DNA of 44,545 bases. Source: a virus. Its lineage: Duplodnaviria; Heunggongvirae; Uroviricota; Caudoviricetes. The stretch is from IMG/VR virus record IMGVR_UViG_2737471829_000005; one strand, given 5' to 3'. The notes under the pieces were generated by a model that worked only from the letters and a program-made list of their open reading frames with translations, was not told the DNA's origin and searched no databases. Every line of letters begins with the position of its first letter. The stretch's first letter is position 1. Made by a program: the position numbers and the translations under genes. Shown here piece by piece: positions 1,209 to 44,545 of this stretch.

Positions 1209-1233
1209 ATAAAAAAGGCCCCCGAAGGGGCCT
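1209..1233 (-). terminator. Intrinsic terminator; functional on the minus strand, hairpin also present on plus
   Basis: aggcccc-cgaa-ggggcct, 7-bp GC stem, preceded by A6 on plus, giving a U-run on minus. Confidence 0.55.
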
Positions 1234-1238
1234 AATCG

Positions 1239-1361
1239 CTACTTGCTGCTAATGTTTATCGTCACATTCAGAGCGTTATCAGTAATCTTCCAACCCTCCC
1301 CATGTGGCGTAAACAAAGCTCCAGTAACAACGATAAAAATACACATGTAGTATTTTTTCAT
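1239..1361 (-). CDS. Small hydrophobic peptide of about 40 aa (MKKYYMCIFIVVTGALFT...); possible membrane peptide or type I toxin candidate
   Basis: Internal ATG at 1361 with AAGGG RBS 7 nt upstream; hydrophobic N-terminus; terminator directly downstream. Confidence 0.25.
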   Translation of the reverse strand: MKKYYMCIFIVVTGALFTPHGEGWKITDNALNVTINISSK

Positions 1362-1425
1362 TGTGTGGCCCTTACAGGCCGTTTCACGGCATCCCCACCG
1401 ACGAAAATGACGCGAGAGCAAGCAC

Positions 1426-1445
1426 GCTGTTTGTGCCTGCGTGGT
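1426..1445 (+). repeat. Direct repeat copy 1 (gctgtttgtgcctgcgtggt)
   Basis: 19/20 identical to 1676-1695, 250 bp apart, in an ORF-poor region. Confidence 0.5.
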
Positions 1446-1633
1446 ACGGCAAGTGGATAATCCTTTCCTGAAAGTCAGTGCCCGGGTGCGAATCGGCGGA
1501 AAGGCCCCAAGCCATATTACACGTCATACCCTTCATAATGAAGGAATAAAAAACGCTTTTATTACATAAGATTACACGTAAATAAGTTAAAAACCTTCAT
1601 TTTGCATGAGCTAATGAGCTAAATTTTTTTATA

Positions 1634-2514: not shown

Positions 2515-2616
2515 AAATGCGCCATTGGTGGACACTTTCCGAGCCGTAGCAAAATCTACGGCCGGGATTAGCCTCCTGAATAACACGATGGCGCATACCG
2601 CGTTAGCGGTTTTTTT
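2515..2616 (+). ncRNA. Candidate small regulatory RNA upstream of the small ORF and antirepressor (P1 c4-like position)
   Basis: TTGACA at 2508-2513; internal hairpin gccgtag...ctacggc; terminator-like hairpin plus T-run at 2597-2616; the -10 is poor. Confidence 0.25.
2597..2616 (+). terminator. Short intrinsic-terminator-like hairpin with T-run
   Basis: accgc-gtta-gcggt followed by T6. Confidence 0.4.
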
Positions 2617-2778
2617 ATGCGTAGAGCACTGTTACGCCCAAATTATGGTGGGTCGTACAGGGGCGGAGAAATCCGCGCCGGTTCGTCATTGTGTCCGGTA
2701 AGGCTAACCCTGTACGGCTCACCACCATTTGATTAGCCTCGAATGGCGGTGATAGTTCCATATACTGGAGATATCACA

Positions 2779-5222: not shown

Positions 5223-5249
5223 CGCAAAGTGTCAAAATGACACTTTGCG
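5223..5249. promoter_or_regulatory. Perfect 12-bp inverted repeat cgcaaagtgtca-aaa-tgacactttgcg between the 126-aa gene and the HTH gene; operator or attenuator hairpin
   Basis: Palindrome read directly; sits in a 60-bp intergenic gap. Confidence 0.5.
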
Positions 5250-5257
5250 CATTGTGT

Positions 5258-5638
5258 TTACTTAACGAGGAATAAAAATGGTTTATTGTTCGGCGGTGTA
5301 ATCGGGGCTGGCTCGCTTTTGCTCATGCGATCAGTGTACCAGGCCAGCTCCTTGTCAAAGTAAGCCTGATTAAAATAGGCCATGAATGTAGTTTCAAATC
5401 CATAACGACCGCTAATACGCAGCATCTGATTGCCGTTCTCTGTTTCCAGATATACCTGGGCACGTTCCTGATTCTCCTTCAGCCAGGTTAAAGCCTCATC
5501 GCACGAGGACACACGGTACTCATCATCGTAGCCGTCATCGATGCGGCTTGAAGAAGAACGGCAAATCACGCCAACAGAACCAGCCAGGATAGTTTGAATT
5601 TTAAGGAAAGCATTTTTGCGGATTTTAATCATGCTCAT
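5258..5638 (-). CDS. Hypothetical protein (126 aa), first gene behind conserved leader cassette A
   Basis: ORF begins directly at the conserved leader RBS. Confidence 0.5.
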   Translation of the reverse strand: MSMIKIRKNAFLKIQTILAGSVGVICRSSSSRIDDGYDDEYRVSSCDEALTWLKENQERAQVYLETENGNQMLRISGRYGFETTFMAYFNQAYFDKELAWYTDRMSKSEPAPITPPNNKPFLFLVK

Positions 5639-5755
5639 CGGGTTATCTCCGGTTTAACCAGGGCGGGTATCGCTCGGTTTCGGTTATAACCTTAGGAAAT
5701 TTTTTCCCACCTGTAAAGCATTTTTTATATAAATATATAATTATATAATTCTATG
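5639..5755 (-). repeat. Conserved promoter-leader cassette, copy A
   Basis: More than 90% identical to 37715-37823 and 44444-44545; holds the AT-rich motif, a TTTACA hexamer, GGGAAAAAATTTCC, and a leader ending at GGAG and ATG. Confidence 0.8.
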
Positions 5756-5801
5756 AGCACAAAAAAGCCCCTTTGCAACAGGGGCTTATCATTCGTTCTG
5801 A

Positions 5802-6101: not shown

Positions 6102-6448
6102 TACTTGCTCTCCAGTGTGTTCAGATGTGCTGCAAACTCATCCTCAGCTATACGCACCAGTTTTTCATAAAACCGTTTATCGTTACTTTTGTCTCCTGCA
6201 CAAAGAACGATGGCCCGGCGAATCGGATCGAACGCATAAAAGGCTCTTATCGGACGGCCAGAAAACTGAACGCGAAGCTCTTTCATATTTTTGTACCGAG
6301 AACCTTTTACGGTATCGGCATATGGCCTGGGTAACTCAGGTCCGTAAACCTGTAGCTTTTTCAAATCAGCCAAAACCTTTTCCTGAAGAGCGTCTTCTTG
6401 CTCATTTAGCCAGTCGTCAAATCGCTGGCTAAAAAGTACCGTCCACAT
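6101..6448 (-). CDS. RelE/HigB-superfamily toxin (Gp49-like addiction-module killer)
   Basis: About 115 aa; toxin-first order with HTH antitoxin downstream; ATG at 6448 (the ORF track start at 6454 is TTG). Confidence 0.65.
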   Translation of the reverse strand: MWTVLFSQRFDDWLNEQEDALQEKVLADLKKLQVYGPELPRPYADTVKGSRYKNMKELRVQFSGRPIRAFYAFDPIRRAIVLCAGDKSNDKRFYEKLVRIAEDEFAAHLNTLESK

Positions 6449-6456
6449 GCTCAATC

Positions 6457-6503
6457 CTATAACCTGTAGTTTATATCACTAACTATATAACCTGTGGGTT
6501 ATA
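6457..6503. promoter_or_regulatory. Operator-like repeats upstream of the toxin-antitoxin operon
   Basis: Direct repeat tataacctgt twice plus inverted repeat tataacc-tgtg-ggttata, overlapping the toxin RBS region. Confidence 0.45.
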
Positions 6504-6692: not shown

Positions 6693-6968
6693 CTATTTTT
6701 GTGACTTTACTCCTGGCATATGGACTTCCCAGCGACGAATCCCCATAGCTGCGCAAAAATCAGCCACATAATTCAATCCCGCCCATTCGCGGATACCACC
6801 ACGGGCTTTTTCAATGAAAACGGCAATCCCTTTTTTATTGAGAGCAAAAAGCCGCCAGCTTTTTGTCACTTCGTCCTGGGTAGCCACAACACAAGTGAAA
6901 GCTCCCATGCGATACAGGTCCAAGAACTCTTTGCGTGTTTTGCGTACAAGTTCCATAACAAACCTCAT
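6693..6968 (-). CDS. Hypothetical protein; start ambiguous (6968 or 6956)
   Basis: ORF coupled to the upstream gene. Confidence 0.4.
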   Translation of the reverse strand: MRFVMELVRKTRKEFLDLYRMGAFTCVVATQDEVTKSWRLFALNKKGIAVFIEKARGGIREWAGLNYVADFCAAMGIRRWEVHMPGVKSQK

Positions 6969-7909: not shown

Positions 7910-8887
7910 TTAATGTTGGAGTGATTTCCAGGTCTTTCTTAGCCTGTTATAACGCTGCTCAACGAGGGATCGTAAATATGCAAGGTCAGCACCAGGATAC
8001 ATGCCATCAGCAAATTCCTGGCTAACCTCTCTAGTGATTTGATGACGAAGTTCGGCCTCTCCCTTTTCCTGAACAAGACGCGCAGCTCTCTCCGCTGCTT
8101 TCTGTTTTGCCTTTATCTCTCTGGCCGTCTTCCTCTGACGCCATACATTCTCCATCTGCTCCTGAATAACAATACGCTTATAATCAGCCTCCGTTATCGC
8201 TTTTTTAAGCCGTTCGCTATTCTTCGCATTGAAGTAATTAAGTTTCTGGCTAACCGCACGTCTCCATGCTTGTTCAGTAATACCAACGGTTTCCAGCAGT
8301 TGATCACGAATCTCTATTTTCGCTGGCCAATACTGTTTATTCACCCGATCCCAGCGACGTTCATAATCAATAAAACCTAACGCTTTCAGTTGCGACAACG
8401 CCCTTGTACAGCGCGTTATAGACTTGTTCCCAGCTTCGGATACGGTAGACAGGCCGCAAAAATCAGCCAACGCCTCAGCACTAGCCAGAACCCGCTTAGA
8501 AATGATGTTTACATGGTGCAAAATCGCAGCGATCACAGCATTAATCGCCCGACGACGATGCTCGTTTATCCGGCGCTTCCGCTCTGACGGTTGATTAACG
8601 TAGAACGCAACCTCACACGTAAGATCACGCCCATTAATGCGCTGTAAAGCATCAGATAACACCAGCGGCAGCTTGTGCGTATGGTGCTTTGGAGGCTGGA
8701 ACTCCGGCGACAAATTACAAACGTAAGCTGAACGTAGAGACGGCATTGGTCTATCCATATGTTCGCTCTTGCGTCCACGGAAAACCAACGTATAATGGGA
8801 GTTGTCGAGGCGCCCATGGTTAATTGTTGGTTTTCCGTGGATGTCGCAAGAAGCCCGCAGATTTATCTGCGGGCTTTTTGTTTCCAT
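7910..8887 (-). CDS. repA: Replication initiator RepA, IncFII (RepA1) family; true start may be internal near 8758
   Basis: Central block CGLSTVSEAGNKSITRCTRALSQLKALGFIDY matches the conserved core of IncFII RepA1 as recalled; basic coiled C-terminus. Confidence 0.75.
   Translation of the reverse strand: METKSPQINLRASCDIHGKPTINHGRLDNSHYTLVFRGRKSEHMDRPMPSLRSAYVCNLSPEFQPPKHHTHKLPLVLSDALQRINGRDLTCEVAFYVNQPSERKRRINEHRRRAINAVIAAILHHVNIISKRVLASAEALADFCGLSTVSEAGNKSITRCTRALSQLKALGFIDYERRWDRVNKQYWPAKIEIRDQLLETVGITEQAWRRAVSQKLNYFNAKNSERLKKAITEADYKRIVIQEQMENVWRQRKTAREIKAKQKAAERAARLVQEKGEAELRHQITREVSQEFADGMYPGADLAYLRSLVEQRYNRLRKTWKSLQH
8769..8796 (+). promoter_or_regulatory. Near-consensus sigma70 promoter antisense to the repA 5' region
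   Basis: TTGCGT, 16-bp spacer, TATAAT. Confidence 0.55.
8803..8880 (+). ncRNA. Candidate CopA-like antisense RNA of about 78 nt
   Basis: Promoter 8769-8796 and strong terminator 8853-8883 bracket a short plus-strand transcript antisense to the repA 5' end. Confidence 0.5.
8853..8883 (+). terminator. Intrinsic terminator of the candidate antisense RNA
   Basis: gcccgcag-atttat-ctgcgggc followed by TTTTTGTTT. Confidence 0.65.
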
Positions 8888-9769: not shown

Positions 9770-10658
9770 GGGAAAAGATACCTTCACCAAAAATATTGGG
9801 GCCTGCCGCGCATATAGCGCATGGCTGAATATTGGTGGCGATAGTCAGGTCTGGACAACCGCGCAATTTATTTCGTGGCTGGAGAGTCAGGGAGCATTTA
9901 ACCATCCTTACTGGATGTGCAAAGGCTCATGGGCTTATGCAAATAATAAGGTCATTACAGATACAGGTTGCGGAAATATTTGTCTTGCAGGTGCTGTGGT
10001 GGAAGTTATTGGCACTCGCGGCGCAATGACCATACGCGTTACCACGCCGAGCACGTCCAGCGGTGGCGGAATTACTAACGCTCAATTCACTTATATTAAT
10101 CATGGTGATGCTTATGCTCCTGGCTGGCGACGAGACTACAACACGAAAAATCAACAACCTGCATTTGCTTTAGGGCAAACAGGAAGCACTGTCGGAAATG
10201 ATAAAGCTGTTGGCTGGAACTGGAATAGCGGGGTCTATAACGCAAACATTGGTGGCGCATCGACATTAATCCTCCACTTCAATATGAATGCGGGGAGCTG
10301 CCCTGCTGTACAGTTCCGCGTGAATTACAGGAACGGCGGCATTTTTTATCGTTCAGCGCGTGATGGTTATGGATTTGAGGCTGACTGGTCAGAGTTTTAC
10401 ACCACGACCCGCAAACCCTCTGCGGGAGATGTTGGTGCATACACGCAGGCAGAATGTAACTCAAGGTTTATTACAGGTATTCGCCTTGGCGGTCTGTCAT
10501 CTGTTCAGACATGGAATGGCCCCGGCTGGTCTGACAGGTCAGGTTATGTCGTTACGGGTTCAGTTAACGGAAACCGTGATGAATTAATTGATACAACACA
10601 GGCAAGGCCAATTCAGTATTGCATTAATGGGACGTGGTATAACGCGGGGAGTATTTAA
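9738..10658 (+). CDS. Alternative tail-fibre C-terminal variable segment (Sv'); silent in this orientation
   Basis: Shares the junction peptide ASGALQKNQNGADIP and a similar C-terminus (PIQ.YINGTWYN) with the expressed fibre; no own promoter or start. Confidence 0.75.
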   Translation: MQKNQNGADIPGKDTFTKNIGACRAYSAWLNIGGDSQVWTTAQFISWLESQGAFNHPYWMCKGSWAYANNKVITDTGCGNICLAGAVVEVIGTRGAMTIRVTTPSTSSGGGITNAQFTYINHGDAYAPGWRRDYNTKNQQPAFALGQTGSTVGNDKAVGWNWNSGVYNANIGGASTLILHFNMNAGSCPAVQFRVNYRNGGIFYRSARDGYGFEADWSEFYTTTRKPSAGDVGAYTQAECNSRFITGIRLGGLSSVQTWNGPGWSDRSGYVVTGSVNGNRDELIDTTQARPIQYCINGTWYNAGSI

Positions 10659-22215: not shown

Positions 22216-23679
22216 TTATTCAGAAAACAAGTTCAGCAGATAATCAGGATTATATTCCATGACGAACTCTATATCTCTGGCAGGTGAGAATGGTGTCATT
22301 TTCACATGGAATTTAACAATCCCGTCCATCAATGACGTAATCGTGTTTTCAGACTGATCAAAGGTAACAACACCACCTGCAATATCCTGATTACCTGTGA
22401 GGCCGTTAAGCCAAATATTCGCACTAGTAACAATCGATTCAATTAATCGACGGTTTGCAGGATTGTCTATTTTTGACCAATGCGAAAGAATTAACGTATT
22501 ACCCACCCAGTTAAACATACGTCGGCAAACACGAAATGCGTCTTTGGGGTCTGTAGATGTTGGATAAATAGCATTACGGTTTCCCCATGATTTCCAACCA
22601 TCAAAATTAAGGCTTGTTACAATCCCCTGTCCATTTAAGTAGTTTGCCTGGCTAATGTTAAGCCATACCTCACTGCCATCTTTACGTACAGCACCGTCCA
22701 TCTGTAGTTTTATATTTGACGGAGAACGTGATGGAATATCACCATACTGACTATCCAGCAAGCATGTTGCGGCCGCTAAATGGGTTGAGTGATGGTAAAT
22801 ATTGTCACCAAGTTTCACCATCGGCCAGCACACTGTCTGGTTAGCTGCCATATGATTATTGTTCTGCTTCCATTCAGGAACAGCAGAATAATCACTGATA
22901 GTAGATTTATCAGTCGGCGCATCGGTGATAGCTTCTGCTTTGAACAATTCACTAATCAGCGCAGCTTTAGCCGCCATTAGCTGGCCAACTTCACTATCAG
23001 AACTAAATCCAGGCGCAATCACTTGTCCTGGAACTAGTTTGAAGCGGGGATAAACATCCGACAGTAACTCAAGCCCCGTATTCGCTTTAGTGTTGGAATC
23101 CACACCACCAATAATATCGTTTTTAGTTACAGCCCCGGGATCAAGATGCGTATAACTAACCTTAAGAGTGGCGTCTTTTTCAGTAATTTTTCCTCCGCTA
23201 ATAGCGGTAATGACCGTATAGCCATTATCATCCAGCGCCAGTACATAATCTGTATCAACCGTTAACCCTGGAGAATCACCATCTGCTTTTTTCACAACAA
23301 CAGATTTATATAAGACACCATCGTTAGAGAGCGTACCTTTCCCGCCAGAAAGTTTTACTACCTCATCAGTTACGTCTTTCTTATGCTTTGCTGGATCAAG
23401 CACATTGATAAATACAACTGGCGCAATACCATATATTCCAAATGCGACTTTAATTACTTCGCTTAAAGTATATTTCTCGAAGTTTGTGCTATATCCTATT
23501 TTAGATACGGCCTCTGCGTATGTATAAGCAATGATAGGTTTATTTACCGCTGAGGCTGGATCTTCTAACTGATTAACAGGAGCTGTACCAAATGCGACAA
23601 TCAACCCAGCACTAACTTGTACTGGAGGAGTTATAGATGTAGCCAGCTCAGATATATAAATACCGTGGCGATATCCCAT
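22216..23679 (-). CDS. Contractile tail sheath protein
   Basis: 487 aa; size and position; N-terminus MGYRHGIYISE typical of sheath proteins. Confidence 0.85.
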   Translation of the reverse strand: MGYRHGIYISELATSITPPVQVSAGLIVAFGTAPVNQLEDPASAVNKPIIAYTYAEAVSKIGYSTNFEKYTLSEVIKVAFGIYGIAPVVFINVLDPAKHKKDVTDEVVKLSGGKGTLSNDGVLYKSVVVKKADGDSPGLTVDTDYVLALDDNGYTVITAISGGKITEKDATLKVSYTHLDPGAVTKNDIIGGVDSNTKANTGLELLSDVYPRFKLVPGQVIAPGFSSDSEVGQLMAAKAALISELFKAEAITDAPTDKSTISDYSAVPEWKQNNNHMAANQTVCWPMVKLGDNIYHHSTHLAAATCLLDSQYGDIPSRSPSNIKLQMDGAVRKDGSEVWLNISQANYLNGQGIVTSLNFDGWKSWGNRNAIYPTSTDPKDAFRVCRRMFNWVGNTLILSHWSKIDNPANRRLIESIVTSANIWLNGLTGNQDIAGGVVTFDQSENTITSLMDGIVKFHVKMTPFSPARDIEFVMEYNPDYLLNLFSE

Positions 23680-26645: not shown

Positions 26646-27734
26646 TTAATTTTTATCGCGGTTTTTAAATACTGACCCAATAACATTTTTTACTGCTTCA
26701 GCCTGTTTGTTACCGTTGTTTTCTGGTTGATTAACATCAACTGAATCATTCACCTCACTTGCGTCTTCTTGCCGTTGATTAAGAAAGTTTTTGTTACGCG
26801 CTCGCTCTGCATTCATAATTTCCAAAGCAAGTTCAGCCGCAGAAACTCCTGTTTTGAATTTTGCATTCTTAACCAGGTCGTCATGACCAGGAATCACGCT
26901 ATTCTCGATTGTTTCAATGCGCTCGCGTTCTGATTTAACGCCCTCGTCTTTACCAGCATTAAAAACCTGATTGTATAATTCTGGATATTTATTTTTTAAT
27001 TCATCAAGAGTCACAATATCGTCCTCATTTTGTTCATTTGATTCAGTAGATAACTCATTTTTATTTTGCGGCAACTTTGCGAGTGAATCAGGTAATTTTG
27101 AAAACCTTGATGCTTCAAAAGTTATTCCATTAAGAGAAAGCATCCCTTCTTTTATAGAAGCGGATAAGCGTATTGGTTTTTCAACTTCGTCAGCAAATCC
27201 AAGCTCTACAGCCTCTTCTGCATTTAGCCATGTTTCCTGATCCATTAGTTCAATTAATTTATCCTCAGAAAGCCCTGTTTTCTCCTTATATGCAGATAAA
27301 ATACTATTGCGTATCTTATCCATCATCTCAGCAATATCACGCAATTCATCCGCATCGCCAGCAGCAAATGTCCACGGATTATGGATCATCATCATAGCAT
27401 TAGATGGGATAATAATTTTATCACCCGCCATTGCAATAATAGTTGCAGCCGATGCAGCAATCCCGTCGATATAAACCGTAATATTCGCCTTATGACGCTT
27501 TAATGATGAAAGAATAGCTTGAGCAGTAAAAACAGAACCACCATAACTATTAATTTTTACGTTGATAGTATTTGATGAAATATCATTTAATTTATTAACT
27601 ATGTCAGAAGAAGAAACCTCATCAAATTCACCAATATACCCGTAAATTAAAAGTTCAGCCGGAGAGTCATCTTCACCCGTGCTATTTTTTATTTCCCACC
27701 AATTAGGCATCATCAGTCTCCATATTTTGTTCAT
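26646..27734 (-). CDS. Head maturation protease / scaffold (S49/ClpP-like, lambda gpC-like)
   Basis: 362 aa; ClpP/SppA-like core GGSVFTAQAI...IDGIAASAATIIAMAGD. Confidence 0.8.
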   Translation of the reverse strand: MNKIWRLMMPNWWEIKNSTGEDDSPAELLIYGYIGEFDEVSSSDIVNKLNDISSNTINVKINSYGGSVFTAQAILSSLKRHKANITVYIDGIAASAATIIAMAGDKIIIPSNAMMMIHNPWTFAAGDADELRDIAEMMDKIRNSILSAYKEKTGLSEDKLIELMDQETWLNAEEAVELGFADEVEKPIRLSASIKEGMLSLNGITFEASRFSKLPDSLAKLPQNKNELSTESNEQNEDDIVTLDELKNKYPELYNQVFNAGKDEGVKSERERIETIENSVIPGHDDLVKNAKFKTGVSAAELALEIMNAERARNKNFLNQRQEDASEVNDSVDVNQPENNGNKQAEAVKNVIGSVFKNRDKN

Positions 27735-31947: not shown

Positions 31948-32528
31948 CCATTAGCAAGATACTGAACAAATCCCTCATGCGTTTCATGCGCGTCGTGGTA
32001 CTGACGATAAACATCCAGCAACAATGCAATTTCCATATCCGTCGCGGGAATACGTTCTTTATCAATAGCCAGGTACTTAATTTGAACAACAGGGGAAGAA
32101 TTATCGTCTTCTTCCTGCGGCTGTTCATCGCTTAACATTTCGTCAAGCTCTGCATCATTAAACCCAAGCAGATCAATATCAAAATCATCATCCATTAACT
32201 CTTTGACTTCTTCGGCCAGAAGCTGCATATCCCAGCCAGCATTTAAGGCCAGCTTGTTATCTGCAATCCTGTAAGCCTTCTTCTGTTTTTCAGAAAGGTT
32301 ACTCAACCGAATCGCCGGAACTTTATCCATTTCAAGAATTTCGGCTGCTGCAAGCCGACCATGCCCCGCAATCAGTTCATTCTTTTCATCGATCAGCACA
32401 GGATTAGTGAAACCGAACTCACGGATACTGTTCACCAACTGTTCAACCTGCTCATCTGAATGAGTCCGTGAATTTTTGGCGTATCTGAGCAGCTTACCGA
32501 CTGGTAAATATTCGATTTTTAGAGCCAT
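31938..32528 (-). CDS. ParB/Srx-like N-terminal domain protein (paralogue of 35195-35818)
   Basis: 196 aa; GHGR motif AGHGRLAAA; full-length paralogy with the third ParB-like protein. Confidence 0.75.
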   Translation of the reverse strand: MALKIEYLPVGKLLRYAKNSRTHSDEQVEQLVNSIREFGFTNPVLIDEKNELIAGHGRLAAAEILEMDKVPAIRLSNLSEKQKKAYRIADNKLALNAGWDMQLLAEEVKELMDDDFDIDLLGFNDAELDEMLSDEQPQEEDDNSSPVVQIKYLAIDKERIPATDMEIALLLDVYRQYHDAHETHEGFVQYLANGCK

Positions 32529-33085
32529 TTTTTAACCGCCATAACACAACAGGTTAAAGAAAACTGTTTAACTTATTGATACTAAAAGAGAAAAATGACG
32601 ATCTTTTTACTCATAAAAAATCACACAAACCAGCATAATCATCTGATTTTATTAAGTTTTTATAAGTGAAAAGGATCTTGAGATGGTGTTTTGGTTAAAA
32701 GATTGGATGTATTTGCATGATTTATAACGATTTTTATCAGAACAACATCACATTGGTTAAAGATCTGCGCGTATCTTGATGATCTAAAAGAAAATTCTCT
32801 ACTTTCTTTTCACCATCACAAGCACAGCAAAAAATCACGTTTTCCCAATATTTTTCAATGAGATGGGTAAATTTCTTTTACCGCAACTTTTAACCTAACT
32901 TTTTTCACGTTTAGCTAGCCGAATATCGGGGTTCGAATGACCCGCATCCAACGCTTTTGGCCAGAAGGACCCAATTCTGCCGGACGATGAAACGATGCTC
33001 GTGCTCCCCCACAGACAGCCAGCGAGCGACGCTACAGAACACAGTGAATACACCCTGCATAACAACACCATCAACCACACGATGA
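32529..33085. other. AT-rich ORF-free intergenic region with four GATC sites upstream of the packaging genes; candidate late promoter or packaging-site region
   Basis: No credible ORF; GATC at 32600, 32674, 32762 and 32781. Confidence 0.3.
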
Positions 33086-36052: not shown

Positions 36053-36084
36053 AAAAAAACAAAACCACCCGCAGGTGGTTTTAT
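36053..36084. terminator. Bidirectional intrinsic terminator at the end of accessory operon B
   Basis: aaaaccacc-cgca-ggtggtttt. Confidence 0.6.
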
Positions 36085-36110: not shown

Positions 36111-36518
36111 CTAATCAGATAAACCAAACTTCTTCTTTGCCAATGACTTGAGAAGTTCTACACCAACATCCTTCATAACAGCCAATGGCTCATTGCTAAT
36201 TTCTTTTAGTCTAGCGAAAACATCTTTGCTCTCTAGTGCACAGGCAAAATCCTGTCCCTCTGTAGTCAATCTAATATCTACATCAACAGTCCTCATTCCT
36301 GCAAAAAAATTAACATAGCCAAGACGCAGAGGATCACGCGTTTCCATCTTCATATTGCTGATAAAACCTTGCTCAATCAATTGCATATAATGAAACATGC
36401 CCTTTTCTGAGGCTATATCAAACCCCGCATCTCTTAGTTGATTTACTGTTATGAACGTGCTTTCTGAATCCAAAAACACAGTCAGCATCTTTTTTAGATA
36501 ATCTAGATCGGTGCGCAT
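36111..36518 (-). CDS. Hypothetical protein (about 135 aa)
   Basis: ATG at 36518 with AAGGAGG RBS. Confidence 0.55.
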   Translation of the reverse strand: MRTDLDYLKKMLTVFLDSESTFITVNQLRDAGFDIASEKGMFHYMQLIEQGFISNMKMETRDPLRLGYVNFFAGMRTVDVDIRLTTEGQDFACALESKDVFARLKEISNEPLAVMKDVGVELLKSLAKKKFGLSD

Positions 36519-36604
36519 TTTACCCTCCTTAAATGGAACGCAAATGTTACACAACCTTTAAAAAAGACACATTGTTTTATTTATGCCTCATTTTAATCGA
36601 CCAA

Positions 36605-36757
36605 TTACTGCCTAAATTTATCAATCAATAATTGCTCCCGCTTACGCCGAAAAGCTCTCTGCGCCACTAAGATGCGCCACAGAACACCAGCGATAACCAC
36701 CAGCGAGATACAAAAACACACGGCCACAACCATCAGAAAAATGCCAACACCATTCAT
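36605..36757 (-). CDS. Small membrane protein (50 aa; MNGVGIFLMVVAVCFCISLVVIAGVLW...)
   Basis: Not in the ORF track (under 60 aa); ATGA overlap with the upstream ORF; single transmembrane segment and basic C-terminus. Confidence 0.4.
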   Translation of the reverse strand: MNGVGIFLMVVAVCFCISLVVIAGVLWRILVAQRAFRRKREQLLIDKFRQ

Positions 36758-37443: not shown

Positions 37444-37469
37444 AAAAAAGCCCCGGCAATTGCCGAGGC
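37444..37469 (-). terminator. Intrinsic terminator inside operon B, between its first and second genes
   Basis: Minus-sense gcctcggc-aauu-gccggggc (8-bp stem) followed by U6. Confidence 0.6.
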
Positions 37470-37492
37470 TCGTTGTTCGTTATCGTTACGGT

Positions 37493-37714: not shown

Positions 37715-37823
37715 CGGGTTATCTCCGGTTTAACCAGGGCGGGTATCGCTCGGTTTCGGGTATAACATTAGGAAATTTTTTCCCACCTGTAAAGTACTTT
37801 TTATATAAATATATAATTCTATG
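37715..37823 (-). repeat. Conserved promoter-leader cassette, copy B
   Basis: More than 90% identical to copies A and C. Confidence 0.8.
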
Positions 37824-38406
37824 ACACTTGCCAGAGAGCATCATGCAACTGGATACCTCCGTTGCACTGGTTGCCCCAGCCATGCCAGCCATCAGGTAAA
37901 TCACCGCGAGCAAACAGCTCAATACGAGGAACATCACCTAACAGTCTTACCAGCTTGTCACGAACCACATCAGGCTTCCGTGAATGTTCCAGACGAGGCG
38001 ATGTAAACGACTGAATGATCCCCGCATCAAGGCGGGTCGGCAGTTTGCCTTTTACCGCAAACAAGCAATCTTCACTGTTCGCACGAGTCATATGCCCCAT
38101 CCCCATCACCAGCTTATCTGGCTGTCGGCTACCACATTTGTTCCATGTGAAGCCCTTCATGGTCATCAGCCTGAACCCCCATGCTTTCACCACCAGCAAC
38201 GCTTCTTCTGGCTGAGTCGGAACCCACCACATGGCCAACAAACACGATTCAGGATTAGCAAGCTGCCAGACAGGAATACGAGCAATCTCCTCAGCTTTCA
38301 TCGTTGGATACTTAAAACCAGCTCCACGATTCCCATCCTTACACTTGTCTTTGTATTCCCAGGGGGGATCTGCATAAATCAGATTAAACAATGCAATTGC
38401 CTCCAT
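37819..38406 (-). CDS. MT-A70 family N6-adenine DNA methyltransferase
   Basis: 195 aa; DPPW catalytic motif near the N-terminus (LIYADPPWEY). Confidence 0.8.
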   Translation of the reverse strand: MEAIALFNLIYADPPWEYKDKCKDGNRGAGFKYPTMKAEEIARIPVWQLANPESCLLAMWWVPTQPEEALLVVKAWGFRLMTMKGFTWNKCGSRQPDKLVMGMGHMTRANSEDCLFAVKGKLPTRLDAGIIQSFTSPRLEHSRKPDVVRDKLVRLLGDVPRIELFARGDLPDGWHGWGNQCNGGIQLHDALWQVS

Positions 38407-38462
38407 GTTAGTTGTGCCTCCGGCGCTTATCTCCGGCAGTCATAACGCTGGCCAGCTCTACA

Positions 38463-38507
38463 GCAAACACAACGAAAAGGGCACTAACCAGACTGATTAA
38501 TGCCCTT
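38463..38507 (-). terminator. Intrinsic terminator about 200 nt downstream of the tRNA
   Basis: Minus-sense aagggcauuaauc-agucu-gguuagugcccuu (13-bp stem, two G-U) followed by a U-rich tract. Confidence 0.5.
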
Positions 38508-38714
38508 GCCTGTTGTGTGCCGGATATCGCCCGACAACGCTGTTTTGGTAACACGGCTACAGTTCCGTGCCGCTCCAGCTTTTACCCCTTTGCGGATAAC
38601 AGGCCCTGCCTGTACTCACTAACCAACGGCTTCCCGAAATGTGCACCAGGCACGCATAAAGATGAGCACGAAGAAGTAACTCCACCGCGCTTATCTTTAT
38701 GTGTGAGGGTGAAT

Positions 38715-38790
38715 TGGTGGCCCCTACCGGATTTGAACCGATGACCGTGCGATTATGAGTCGCCTGCTCTAACCACTAAGCTAAGGGGCC
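38715..38790 (-). tRNA. tRNA with CAU anticodon (Ile2-like or Met elongator; not distinguishable by eye)
   Basis: Reverse complement is GGCCCCTTAGCTTAGTGGTTAGAGCAGGCGACTCATAATCGCACGGTCATCGGTTCAAATCCGGTAGGGGCCACCA: 7-bp acceptor stem, D-arm, CTCATAA anticodon loop, GGTTCAAATCC T-arm, encoded CCA. Confidence 0.85.
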
Positions 38791-38801
38791 ATATTTGATT
38801 T

Positions 38802-38882
38802 GTTTGTCTGGTGTGGCGCCGCGCACGAAAATCCCAGCCAATAAATTCAGGATTTTTGGGCGCGGCGGCATATCAGACAAAC
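38802..38882. repeat. Long imperfect palindrome (33-nt arms, 28/33 matching, 15-nt centre) just upstream of the tRNA
   Basis: gtttgtctggtgtggcgccgcgcacgaaaatcc / ggatttttgggcgcggcggcatatcagacaaac. Confidence 0.6.
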
Positions 38883-38929
38883 ATGGTTGATGCGTGCGCC
38901 CATGAGAAAAGCGCATAGAATGTTGTAAC

Positions 38930-38965
38930 TATATATTTATATAATTATAGAAATATATATTACTT
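38930..38965. promoter_or_regulatory. AT-rich recurrent motif copy; candidate promoter for the tRNA unit
   Basis: ctatatatttatataattatagaaatatatattac. Confidence 0.35.
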
Positions 38966-39169
38966 TCGGCAGTTGATTTCCCATGCCCTGTTATGAGCCA
39001 GAATATCTTTCTTTGTCTGGCGGTCCATAACATCGATATCGTGATCAGTCAGGTAGATGGGCTTTACCCAATCACAGGCGGTATCAACCACCACCGGGAC
39101 GCTTCCATGACTCCCGCAGCTCGCGATCAACATCGTCATCAGCCATATGGTTAACACTCTGCTGTACAT
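38960..39169 (-). CDS. Outer-membrane spanin (Rz1-like lipoprotein)
   Basis: 69 aa; signal peptide with lipobox LIASC; overlaps the 3' end of the Rz-like gene in another frame. Confidence 0.55.
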   Translation of the reverse strand: MYSRVLTIWLMTMLIASCGSHGSVPVVVDTACDWVKPIYLTDHDIDVMDRQTKKDILAHNRAWEINCRK

Positions 39170-39362
39170 TCCCCACCTCTTTTGTCACTTCTATACGCCG
39201 CTCCGCAGTGGCTTTTACGGCGGCTGCATTCTCATTAATGCGCTGCTTTTCAGCTTCATCTTCGGCCTTTTCTCGCCCCTTCATACGACCAAAACCAAAT
39301 GCGCCGAATGCAACCAATATAATGGTGCCGATAAATGACAAAACGGCTTTCAAACCAGTCAT
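39084..39362 (-). CDS. Inner-membrane spanin (Rz-like)
   Basis: 92 aa; N-terminal transmembrane segment then charged coiled region; follows the endolysin gene. Confidence 0.5.
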   Translation of the reverse strand: MTGLKAVLSFIGTIILVAFGAFGFGRMKGREKAEDEAEKQRINENAAAVKATAERRIEVTKEVGNVQQSVNHMADDDVDRELRESWKRPGGG

Positions 39363-40580: not shown

Positions 40581-40610
40581 AAAAAAAAGCCCCGCCGAAA
40601 AAGGCAGGGC
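40581..40610 (-). terminator. Intrinsic terminator immediately upstream of the holin RBS (lambda tR'-like placement)
   Basis: Minus-sense gcccugcc-uuuuuc-ggcggggc (one mismatch) followed by U8, then GAGGA RBS and ATG. Confidence 0.55.
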
Positions 40611-40952
40611 TTCATAAAGCAACAAATTACGCGGTAATCGCTTAACGCAGTTTTACTACGTTAAATGAAACACTACACCCAGTTACCACCTAAAACAAGG
40701 TTTTCTCATAAAAAAACCTTCAAATCGTGGTTAATCGATCAATAAAAAAACAATACTCAACTTTTTGCCAAACGAACATCCCGGCCAGGACTTCCATAAT
40801 ATTCGCCGATATGCCACTGCTTAAGTTGAGTAATCTTCTCCAACTTAACTCCCATAGAGTCCAGTTTCTGCCATGTTTTCGGTTGTATGTGCTTCATTAT
40901 CCGCTCTGAATATCTGAATACTGCTCGTAATCGCATGGCTTCTCACTACAGC

Positions 40953-43020: not shown

Positions 43021-43319
43021 GCCACAGCCCCTCTCAACGGCTTAACTTTGGCTAATAAGGTGTTAAACAACATGGAGTTAGGGTTCATGCCAAATGGCAA
43101 TTCCGGTTTAGCGGAGTAGTACAGGCAACCATTTATTTTCCTGGTTGTTATCTGTCCTTCGGCAACCATGCTTCTCAGTCTGCAACGCATAGAGTTCTGC
43201 GACACACCAATGTGCTCCGCGATTACGTCCACTTTTGAACATGGGTGATCGGTCAGGAAATTAATCACATCTTGGGGGTTAATAATTTTGCGTTTCATTG
43301 TCGAGGCGTCCTTATACAT
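43017..43319 (-). CDS. Winged-helix / HTH DNA-binding protein, first gene of an operon headed by the AT-rich motif
   Basis: 100 aa; DVIAEHIGVSQNSMRCRLRSMVAEGQI resembles MarR/GntR-like wHTH. Confidence 0.55.
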   Translation of the reverse strand: MYKDASTMKRKIINPQDVINFLTDHPCSKVDVIAEHIGVSQNSMRCRLRSMVAEGQITTRKINGCLYYSAKPELPFGMNPNSMLFNTLLAKVKPLRGAVA

Positions 43320-43345
43320 TTATATAAATATATAATTCTATATAC
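43319..43345 (-). promoter_or_regulatory. AT-rich recurrent motif copy upstream of the winged-helix operon
   Basis: tttatataaatatataattctatatac. Confidence 0.4.
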
Positions 43346-44443: not shown

Positions 44444-44545
44444 CAGATTTCTCCGGTTTAACCAGGGCGGGTATCGCTCGGTTTCGGTTATAACCTTAGG
44501 AAATTTTTTCCCACCTGTAAAGCACTTTTTATATAAATCTATAAT
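44444..44545 (-). repeat. Conserved promoter-leader cassette, copy C; its promoter end is cut by the window end
   Basis: More than 90% identical to copies A and B. Confidence 0.8.

Follow-up and report, generated by a model that had tools for sequence, protein, structure and literature searches.

A transfer RNA (tRNA) gene with a CAU anticodon lies between the lysis cassette and an MT-A70 family DNA methyltransferase gene in the IMG/VR virus record IMGVR_UViG_2737471829_000005, with a long palindrome on its 5′ side and about 200 nt ending in a terminator on its 3′ side. The element in the window, which is the whole analysed stretch of 44,545 nt, is a ~48-kb Escherichia coli phage-plasmid. The question raised by this locus is whether the palindrome and the untranslated stretch are the leader and trailer of the tRNA itself, as a preliminary description made from the sequence had it, or whether the tRNA is a guest in a structure that serves something else. 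We favour the second answer: the locus might be an operator-controlled non-coding unit that doubles as an attenuating leader for MT-A70 and its operon and carries the tRNA as exchangeable cargo, a reading to which we give about even chances. The parts of the region, in the order of minus-strand transcription, are as follows.

38960–39169, minus strand: Rz1-like o-spanin, the final gene of the lysis cassette (flanking context)
38930–38961, no strand assigned: AT array of four tandem 8-bp units, TATATATT TATATAAT TATAGAAA TATATATT (plus strand), near-palindromic
38890–38916, minus strand: small hairpin ATGCG...CGCAT between the AT array and the palindrome
38801–38883, no strand assigned: 83-bp imperfect palindrome giving a long hairpin, arms 38801–38834 and 38850–38883
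38715–38790, minus strand: tRNA-Ile2 gene (the type being very probable), anticodon CAU, CCA encoded (ARAGORN; Rfam tRNA)
38651–38705, minus strand: proximal-trailer hairpin with 27-nt arms (inverted-repeat search)
38501–38614, minus strand: distal trailer of ~105 nt with four helices, ACAGGC/GCCUGU, CCGC/GCGG, CRCGG/CCGUG and GYCGG/CCGGC
38477–38507, minus strand: stem-loop of an intrinsic terminator, a 14-bp stem followed by TTTTCGTTGTGT (minus strand), with the U-tract at 38467–38476
38407–38466, minus strand: leader of ~60 nt from the terminator to the MT-A70 ribosome-binding site, nearly invariant (alignment A3)
37819–38406, minus strand: MT-A70 family DNA methyltransferase, the first gene past the leader (Pfam MT-A70 2.4e-23; PHROG DNA methyltransferase)

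The coordinates of the preliminary description proved right to within 1–14 nt. The tRNA was recovered where it had been placed, by ARAGORN with a canonical cloverleaf and a CAU anticodon and by the Rfam tRNA model with 65.8 bits (E 3e-12) at 38718–38790. The long imperfect palindrome was likewise found, with arms of 34 nt each that are 85% complementary and enclose a loop of 15 nt, as was the terminator, a G+C-rich stem-loop followed by the tract UUUUCGUUGUGU and provided with an extended lower helix, CACAAC/GUUGUG. The trailer had been described as ~200 nt free of open reading frames (ORFs), which holds for conserved ORFs and fails for mechanical ones, since ORFs of 42 and 48 amino acids on the minus strand and of 110 amino acids on the plus strand can be drawn in 38508–38714. 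None of the three is conserved, because a 40-nt indel in the terminators of Salmonella and of the relative L018 and a 102-nt deletion in the plasmid pESBL3215 break or remove them.

The relation between the tRNA and its surroundings was examined in three syntenic relatives that have no tRNA, namely the Salmonella plasmids pAR-0407-1 (L004) and CP053324 (L014) and the IMG/VR contig L017. In all of them the AT block and the palindrome are still present, and so are the terminator, the MT-A70 leader and the distal part of the trailer (~105 nt); the position of the tRNA is taken by two non-coding modules, M3 and M4, together with a larger form of the post-tRNA hairpin, M5. The most diverged relative, L018, carries M3 and M4 and also an orthologue of the tRNA-Ile2, placed between M4 and M5 at a junction different from that of the window and bearing compensatory changes in the anticodon and T stems. 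The frame is kept without the tRNA, which is therefore one of the interchangeable contents of a cargo slot; that the palindrome and the trailer belong to the tRNA as its leader and trailer is not supported. The proximal-trailer hairpin, which had been counted as part of a tRNA trailer, is instead homologous to the closing stem of the larger variable module M5. The conserved frame has two halves, the AT block with the long hairpin before the slot and the distal trailer with the terminator and the leader after it. The Salmonella-type lysis cassette upstream is non-homologous and stops exactly at the AT block, so the frame travels with the downstream genes. A search of viral contigs anchored on MT-A70 gave ~70 prophages with a 77%-identical methyltransferase, and the upstream region was found in none of them.

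Comparison across these lineages shows that selection for structure or sequence acts on the long hairpin, the distal trailer and the terminator, which upholds the earlier suspicion of a structured palindrome and trailer. The palindrome is the longest local inverted repeat of the entire 44.5-kb window, and the z-score of its RNA fold is −6.5 (minus strand) or −8.7 (plus strand), with none of 200 shuffles as stable. The top of the stem (GAAAATCC / GGATTTTC) is almost invariant and the lower stem is recoded with pairing preserved: among six distinct variants, 7–8 of the 34 pairs are changed on both sides and still paired, which was reached by none of 500 shuffles, and slid-partner controls are 27–48% paired versus 85–89% in the true register. 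The small hairpin between the palindrome and the AT array is a hot spot of micro-variation among the E. coli copies and is swapped in the Salmonella and L018 types for another 7-bp hairpin (TTGYCGA/TCGGCAA), whose U.G pair in L018 works on the sense strand only. Neither the palindrome nor the trailer has a second copy on the plasmid, where only the AT block repeats. Sites of the XerCD/dif-like, integration host factor (IHF), parS, P2 Ogr-type (TGT-N12-ACA), boxA, protelomerase telRL and retron msd kinds were also considered and dismissed by eye, their sequences or partner genes being unmatched.

Downstream of the cargo slot, the M5 stems covary, with AAAGATAAGCGCG and its partner in the window, AGAGATAGGCACTGC and its partner in L018, and AGATATGTGTACGGC and its partner in Salmonella. 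The distal trailer has a mean column identity of 95% across lineages in which MT-A70 is only 75% identical, and 98.6% of the cells in its helices are paired. Five pairs vary, all of them kept by G.U pairing that exists only on the sense strand, so a minus-strand RNA is indicated. The segment also contains an invariant single-stranded stretch of 17 nt, UUACCAAAACAGCGUUG, and continues into the base of the terminator, CACACAAC; no trans target complementary to the invariant stretch was found in the window. The model R1, built on the distal trailer, scores 149 bits at the window locus, the predicted 434-nt unit folds with z = −6.5, and the z-scores across the structures of the region range from −4.5 to −8.7. 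When the locus in the window and seven related loci were searched with Rfam 15 at gathering and permissive thresholds (E up to 10), the tRNA was the sole family passing the gathering score; matches to microRNA families only reflect hairpin shape, and the best other non-tRNA match was rydB. An additional structured RNA in the trailer, which the preliminary description had thought possible, is thus missing from the covariance-model results, and conserved structure is still seen in the comparative data.

The terminator stem is recoded with compensation in the relatives (GGGCA/UGCCC, GAGCACAG/CUGUGCUC and GAGCGC/GCGCUC), and the A3 consensus fold of the whole distal region has nine pairs with double changes. 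It had been overlooked that this terminator is placed within the 5′ leader of MT-A70, with no sigma-70-like promoter in between: none was found in 38200–39200, hence none between the terminator and the gene, and MT-A70 expression therefore seems to need read-through. A conserved structure, a terminator and a gene thus follow one another with no promoter between them, and a conserved sensing part with a variable, covarying terminator is the usual anatomy of termination-type leaders, which leads to the attenuator reading. Like such 5′ leaders (attenuators, riboswitch-like elements), the window has a conserved multi-helix part, a covarying and less conserved terminator and a conserved leader; unlike the known riboswitch and leader families, it matches no such family in Rfam at E up to 10, and no convincing covarying antiterminator helix was found at the locus. 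The antiterminator alternatives seen by eye were a 5-bp GUUGU/ACAAC helix near helix 4 and a non-covarying AAAGGGG/CCCUUU, and the long-range pairing between trailer and leader proposed by RNAalifold is explained by shared CCGG cores. In the co-directional gene array, four strong minus-strand terminators were detected (40586–40613, 38477–38507, 37448–37471 and 36059–36084), suggesting either processive antitermination or many separate promoters; one of the three other than 38477–38507 sits immediately upstream of the holin start codon. The MT-A70 leader holds a rydB-like hairpin, CCGGAGAUAAGCGCCGG. Its rydB matches are sub-threshold, 27–29 bits against a gathering score of 50, at 38409–38464 of the window (minus strand), at 8869–8932 of L017 and at 6932–6991 of L018, and an identical 19-mer, UGCCGGAGAUAAGCGCCGG, is common to the rydB-like leader in three diverged lineages.

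It had likewise escaped notice that the AT-rich block upstream is a member of a dispersed family of repeat arrays. The wider block spans 38919–38967 and provides one of only two 40-mers of the window with ≥90% A+T; within it, the array begins at the Rz1 stop codon, forms an inverted repeat (38930–44 / 38945–59) of 93% complementarity and is directly followed by GTTACA (38929–38924, sense strand). The 15-mer motif TATATATTTATATAA, allowing ≤3 mismatches, has 34 matches in the window versus 2.6 expected (13-fold) and 47 on the full plasmid, and the AT-only repeat unit has the consensus TATAKAWW. The matches cluster into ~8 arrays, at parA and at five other intergenic sites, and every full array is intergenic and adjoins the 5′ end of an operon or single gene. 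The parA promoter region has an array on each side, a third separates parA from the gene after it, two more start at the stop codons of MT-A70 and Rz1, and the rest precede early genes. Several arrays start exactly at the stop codon of the gene upstream. In addition, a unit of ~100 bp, consisting of an AT array and GTRCTTTACAGGTGGGAAAAAATTTCCTAAGGTTATAMCCGAAACCGAGCGATACCCGCCCTGGTTAAACCGGAGATAACCCG followed by ATG, is present in three identical copies, each before a different gene; it includes TTTACA, and its last elements are a Shine-Dalgarno sequence and a start codon.

4–19, 710–727, 5723–5756, 37799–37824, 43312–43343 and 44529–44544 (window): other AT arrays
23039–23070 and 26800–26904 (L003): other AT arrays
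~5637–5760, ~37715–37825 and 44460–44545 (window): ~100-bp repeated unit, the last copy running past the window end

In the three tRNA-less relatives the AT block is identical or one base off, the Salmonella copies being identical in surroundings that are 77% identical, and in L018 30 of 36 positions match. A consensus scan of 38200–39200 called no canonical sigma-70 −35/−10 pair at the studied array, and for this reason the arrays are read as operator/promoter-type sites for an unspecified regulator, the block at 38930–38961 likely being one such element. The next unit downstream has the same layout, with the array at 37799–37824, a small gene and the terminator at 37448–37471, which supports the tRNA region as a transcription unit of its own. 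The operators of P1 C1 and the omega/ParG/KorB-type arrays of partition and global regulation are similar in that short repeats stand at the 5′ ends of many operons, including parA; unlike them, the TATAKAWW units of the window are extremely AT-rich and could be promoter cores themselves. The arrays offer a testable handle on how a widespread E. coli phage-plasmid silences its lytic genes. The unit also resembles phage morons, the promoter-gene-terminator inserts, in having an array and a strong terminator between phage gene blocks with variable cargo, but differs from them in its non-coding product and in that conservation is higher in the flanking non-coding modules than in the cargo.

Taken by itself, the tRNA is ordinary, the phage topping up a scarce AUA decoder for its ATA-rich late genes. 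Direct reading of its acceptor stem, GGCCCCU...AGGGGCC-A-CCA, gives C4-G69, C5-G68 and the discriminator A73. The two pairs are the TilS determinants that separate tRNA-Ile2 from tRNA-Met, and with A73 they serve as determinants for TilS and IleRS. The Ile2 type, already thought plausible, is very probable given these nucleotides, and C34 of the CAU anticodon is presumably modified to lysidine; the RefSeq copies are all annotated as tRNA-Ile, and so are the chromosomal homologues (NCBI annotation). The chromosomal tRNA-Ile, found in all 5426 complete E. coli genomes, is 88.2% identical to the window tRNA, and the tRNA-Ile of plasmids of ~90–100 kb, presumed from their size to be P1-like, is 93.4% identical; in the latter, similarity to the window ends within 5–11 nt of the tRNA and the flanks are unrelated. 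ATA is used 15.5 times per 1000 codons across the plasmid and 19.8 times per 1000 in the structural and packaging genes, where it makes up 30% of the Ile codons, and the usage in E. coli is ~4–5 per 1000. A codon-supply function for this tRNA is well supported, and so is the Ile2 reading. The window tRNA shares the CAU anticodon, C4-G69, C5-G68, A73 and the encoded CCA with ileX and ileY of E. coli (the lysidine-34 tRNA-Ile2 reading AUA), with trnI of P1 and with ileZ of Shiga toxin (Stx) phages, and like the phage copies it is carried by a temperate phage with ATA-rich late genes. Unlike all of these, it is placed after the lysis cassette and within a conserved structured leader, with unrelated flanks. 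As had been maintained, the gene is phage-borne and not an attachment-site fragment, being of full length, with CCA encoded, and carried by a plasmid prophage; the annotation of an identical plasmid contains no tyrosine integrase, its sole recombinase being a small serine type that adjoins the tail-fibre genes.

The modules M3 and M4, which fill the cargo slot of the relatives, recur in 98 phage records, including phiNP, Stx2a phages, SfV and others. For M4, 36 pairs are predicted, four of them compensatory, and no Rfam family matches M3 or M4. The loci are listed below.

7987–8330, L017: M3/M4
6170–6480, L018: M3/M4
6186–6320, L118: M3/M4
10290–10410, L119: M3/M4
36141–36721, phiNP (OR565852.1): M3/M4
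5246–5628, AP012536.1: M3/M4

In the Citrobacter phage phiNP and in Stx2a_1447, M3 and M4 lie in an ORF-free gap of ~0.9 kb, and in the IMG/VR contig L125 the gap is ~1.3 kb. On one side of each gap is a cI-like repressor and on the other the first early-left gene, a place occupied in lambda by PL-nutL-N, and no N-like gene is annotated in any of the three. The closing-helix motif of the window terminator, CCGGCACACAAC...AAGRGCA / UGCYCU..CGUUGUG, recurs in the leaders of L118, L124, L125 and L128, L118 being identical to phiNP over the region queried, and these lambdoid leaders contain internal terminators and several helices closed by CACAAC/GUUGUG. Such recurrence suggests that these promoter-proximal, modular leader RNAs form a family, with a reduced version in the window. 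In L125 (1374–1504) and L128 (6083–6264, minus strand), a CACAAC/GUUGUG-closed helix encloses two T-loop-like hairpins, GGTTCAATTCC and CGTTCGATTCG, and in L128 a tRNA-Ile2-like gene stands 13 nt upstream of this module.

A comparison was also made with the put sites of phage HK022, cis-acting RNAs of processive antitermination whose terminator read-through depends on the zinc-binding domain of the RNA polymerase β′ subunit. HK022 put is ~70 nt long and consists of two stem-loops (PMC9378689). By blastn, the PL/PR region of HK022 (27.6–30.1 kb) gave no match at E up to 1 to the window region or to the related leaders, and the architecture differs, the window having a single 83-nt hairpin and separate modules, so an HK022-type put identity was rejected. 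The likeness is positional only, as the structured RNA of the window is promoter-proximal and upstream of terminators in a long operon, as put is. The modules of the relatives fill the place of N and nutL in lambdoid early-left leaders.

Under the preferred reading, the locus would be an ORF-free, modular control region transcribed from the minus strand between the lysis cassette and the MT-A70, ParB-like and packaging genes, with its parts arranged as AT array, small hairpin, 83-nt hairpin, cargo slot holding the tRNA-Ile2, closing hairpin, four-helix RNA, terminator and MT-A70 leader. Transcripts would start at the AT array, or cross it, and would then either stop at 38477–38507 or read through. 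Stopping would leave a precursor of ~400 nt, from which RNase P and RNase E-type processing would free the tRNA, and read-through would allow MT-A70 and the later genes to be expressed, the distal trailer and the terminator together working as an attenuator or an antitermination-type leader. The tRNA would raise AUA decoding in late gene expression, and the 83-nt hairpin might be an element for processing, stability or recognition of the 5′ leader, a role that is the least certain step of the model.

Several observations weigh against this reading. The consensus scan called no canonical sigma-70 promoter at the AT block, and the unit could merely share a transcript with the lysis genes. Pfam and PHROG scans of ten neighbouring proteins revealed no Q-, N- or Lpa-like regulator, and no ligand for the leader was identified. 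The plasmid pESBL3215 (L013, NZ_MW390530.1, 2620–2640) has a natural 102-nt deletion, corresponding to ~38534–38635 of the window and falling between two TCGGG repeats, which leaves the tRNA, the palindrome and the terminator intact; since most of the conserved segment is missing from it, the distal segment is dispensable for plasmid maintenance. The window is devoid of M3 and M4 and has only short motifs in common with the lambdoid leaders, in which the best R1 matches are marginal (E ~0.1). The palindrome adds to this, as 17 of 18 distinct mismatch columns in the six variants are A.C or pyrimidine-pyrimidine on the sense strand, and every one of the six variants is more stable on the plus strand than on the minus strand, whether folded as RNA or as DNA (in the window −53.7 versus −40.3 kcal/mol for RNA and −33.8 versus −25.3 kcal/mol for DNA). 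On the plus strand the same 17 columns are G.T or purine-purine, an asymmetry opposed to the background, the plus strand being C-rich overall. The mismatch pattern argues for a single-stranded, strand-specific form and does not fit a plain sense-RNA hairpin, and it keeps alive a role as plus-strand RNA or single-stranded DNA in priming, at an origin or in recombination.

Of the competing explanations, the one that draws most on this asymmetry holds that the palindrome and the AT repeats act as DNA or on the plus strand, in primosome assembly or single-strand initiation, as a lytic origin, as a recombination site or as an antisense RNA hairpin. The asymmetry, together with the better folding of the plus strand, is neither expected of a symmetric duplex site for a protein nor predicted by a sense-RNA hairpin, and in lambda ori and IncQ oriV repeats are likewise followed by an AT-rich stretch and then a large palindrome. 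We nevertheless regard this explanation as unlikely. The AT arrays stand at ~8 loci and so do not mark a unique origin, the GC skew is uniformly negative and its cumulative curve has no switch here, and no replication initiator or nickase gene is annotated nearby, repA being ~30 kb off in window coordinates (~17 kb the shorter way round the circular plasmid). The scan found no plus-strand promoter, and the variable cargo leaves no conserved sequence on the left side for one; the neighbouring helices all show sense-strand-specific wobble changes, and packaging probably starts elsewhere, at ~32.5–33.1 kb, upstream of terS. Improbable to the same degree is the view closest to the preliminary description, in which the palindrome serves the tRNA as a dedicated leader for processing or regulation and the trailer as its 3′ external spacer, maybe holding a small RNA of the 3′ external transcribed spacer type that binds Hfq and acts in trans. 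The hairpin does stop 10 nt before the 5′ end of the tRNA, the trailer ends in a stem-loop and a U-tail like Hfq-dependent small RNAs, the invariant 17-nt single-stranded stretch is a possible seed, and an AT array and a terminator delimit the unit. However, the palindrome, the distal trailer and the terminator persist in three tRNA-less lineages, in these and in L018 it is other modules that come after the palindrome, the trailer is always linked to an equally conserved MT-A70 leader, and the possible seed has no complementary target within the window.

Fainter still is the case for the long hairpin as an RNase III-type site of processing or retro-regulation that splits the lysis mRNA from the tRNA and the non-coding RNA, with the AT block a mere insulator or operator and not a promoter. 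Neither a terminator from the Rz1 stop codon to the tRNA nor a canonical promoter was found, the sense RNA forms a helix of ~34 bp with small internal loops, similar interrupted helices are cut by RNase III in T7 and lambda, and the position of the hairpin is constant behind non-homologous lysis cassettes. On the other hand, RNase III needs neither the near-invariant stem top nor the strand-biased mismatches, and the AT arrays elsewhere lie at operon 5′ ends. That the palindrome and the trailer are neutral spacer, or chance structure around an ordinary phage tRNA, is hardly credible and is already contradicted by covariation and conservation: although Rfam recognises the tRNA alone and one natural plasmid does without 102 nt of the trailer, compensatory changes occur in the palindrome, the terminator and the M5 stem, the distal trailer has 95% identity next to a protein with 75%, and the fold z-scores range from −4.5 to −8.7.

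A broader proposal, which goes beyond the preferred reading of an attenuating leader with swappable cargo and which we hold only as a speculative minority view, is that temperate enterobacterial phages have an undescribed class of leader RNAs, long, modular and structured, of which the window holds a reduced member. Such leaders would combine, as interchangeable modules, long hairpins, M3, M4, CACAAC/GUUGUG helices, T-loop-like hairpins and embedded tRNAs behind repressor-controlled promoters; they would control read-through of many operon terminators without a dedicated N- or Q-like protein, or by way of another factor, and it may be from the non-coding strand that the 83-nt hairpin is read. 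If leaders of this kind do control read-through, they would be a second and far more widespread example, after HK022 put, of RNA-centred control of phage genes, with a bearing on the biology of Stx phages and phage-plasmids. Several hundred ORF-free nucleotides here outdo the neighbouring proteins in conservation and contain covarying helices and a leader terminator, no curated RNA family covers them, and similar modules occupy the ~1-kb N/nutL gap in about 100 sequenced temperate phages, including Stx2 phages.

As for the element itself, E. coli plasmids of 48–52 kb, such as pZ0117EC0148-4 and pFDN11_2, match the window with 100% identity. The window is 98.8% identical to the 48.5-kb plasmid of E. 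coli ATCC 25922 (CP009073, with the studied region at 31.2–32.1 kb), which thus carries a copy, and 97% identical to the Yersinia phages vB_YpM_39, 41 and 44. A literature search on the phage-plasmid family and on these three phages turned up nothing on the studied region, and pattern scans of the contigs of representative genomes gave no match because those genomes are without this plasmid. The annotated identical plasmid codes for RepA, ParA, head, contractile tail and a tail-fibre invertase. Around the studied region, the minus strand is the coding strand for nearly every gene, in the order holins, endolysin, Rz/Rz1, the studied region, MT-A70, small ORFs, ParB-like, terminase and structural genes. 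Three further RNAs scored above the Rfam gathering threshold elsewhere in the window.

1211–1509, minus strand: ryfA (134.6 bits)
2543–2616, plus strand: isrK (68 bits)
2641–2729, plus strand: C4 antisense RNA (70.8 bits)

The isrK and C4 RNAs lie upstream of an ORF6N antirepressor gene and form with it an immI module of the P1/P7 type, carried here by a plasmid half as large as P1. An AT-rich intergenic stretch of 557 nt, 32521–33077, was also observed upstream of the ParB/Srx-terS-terL genes; the GenBank records of the three Yersinia phages start and end inside it, from which we infer that packaging probably begins upstream of terS.

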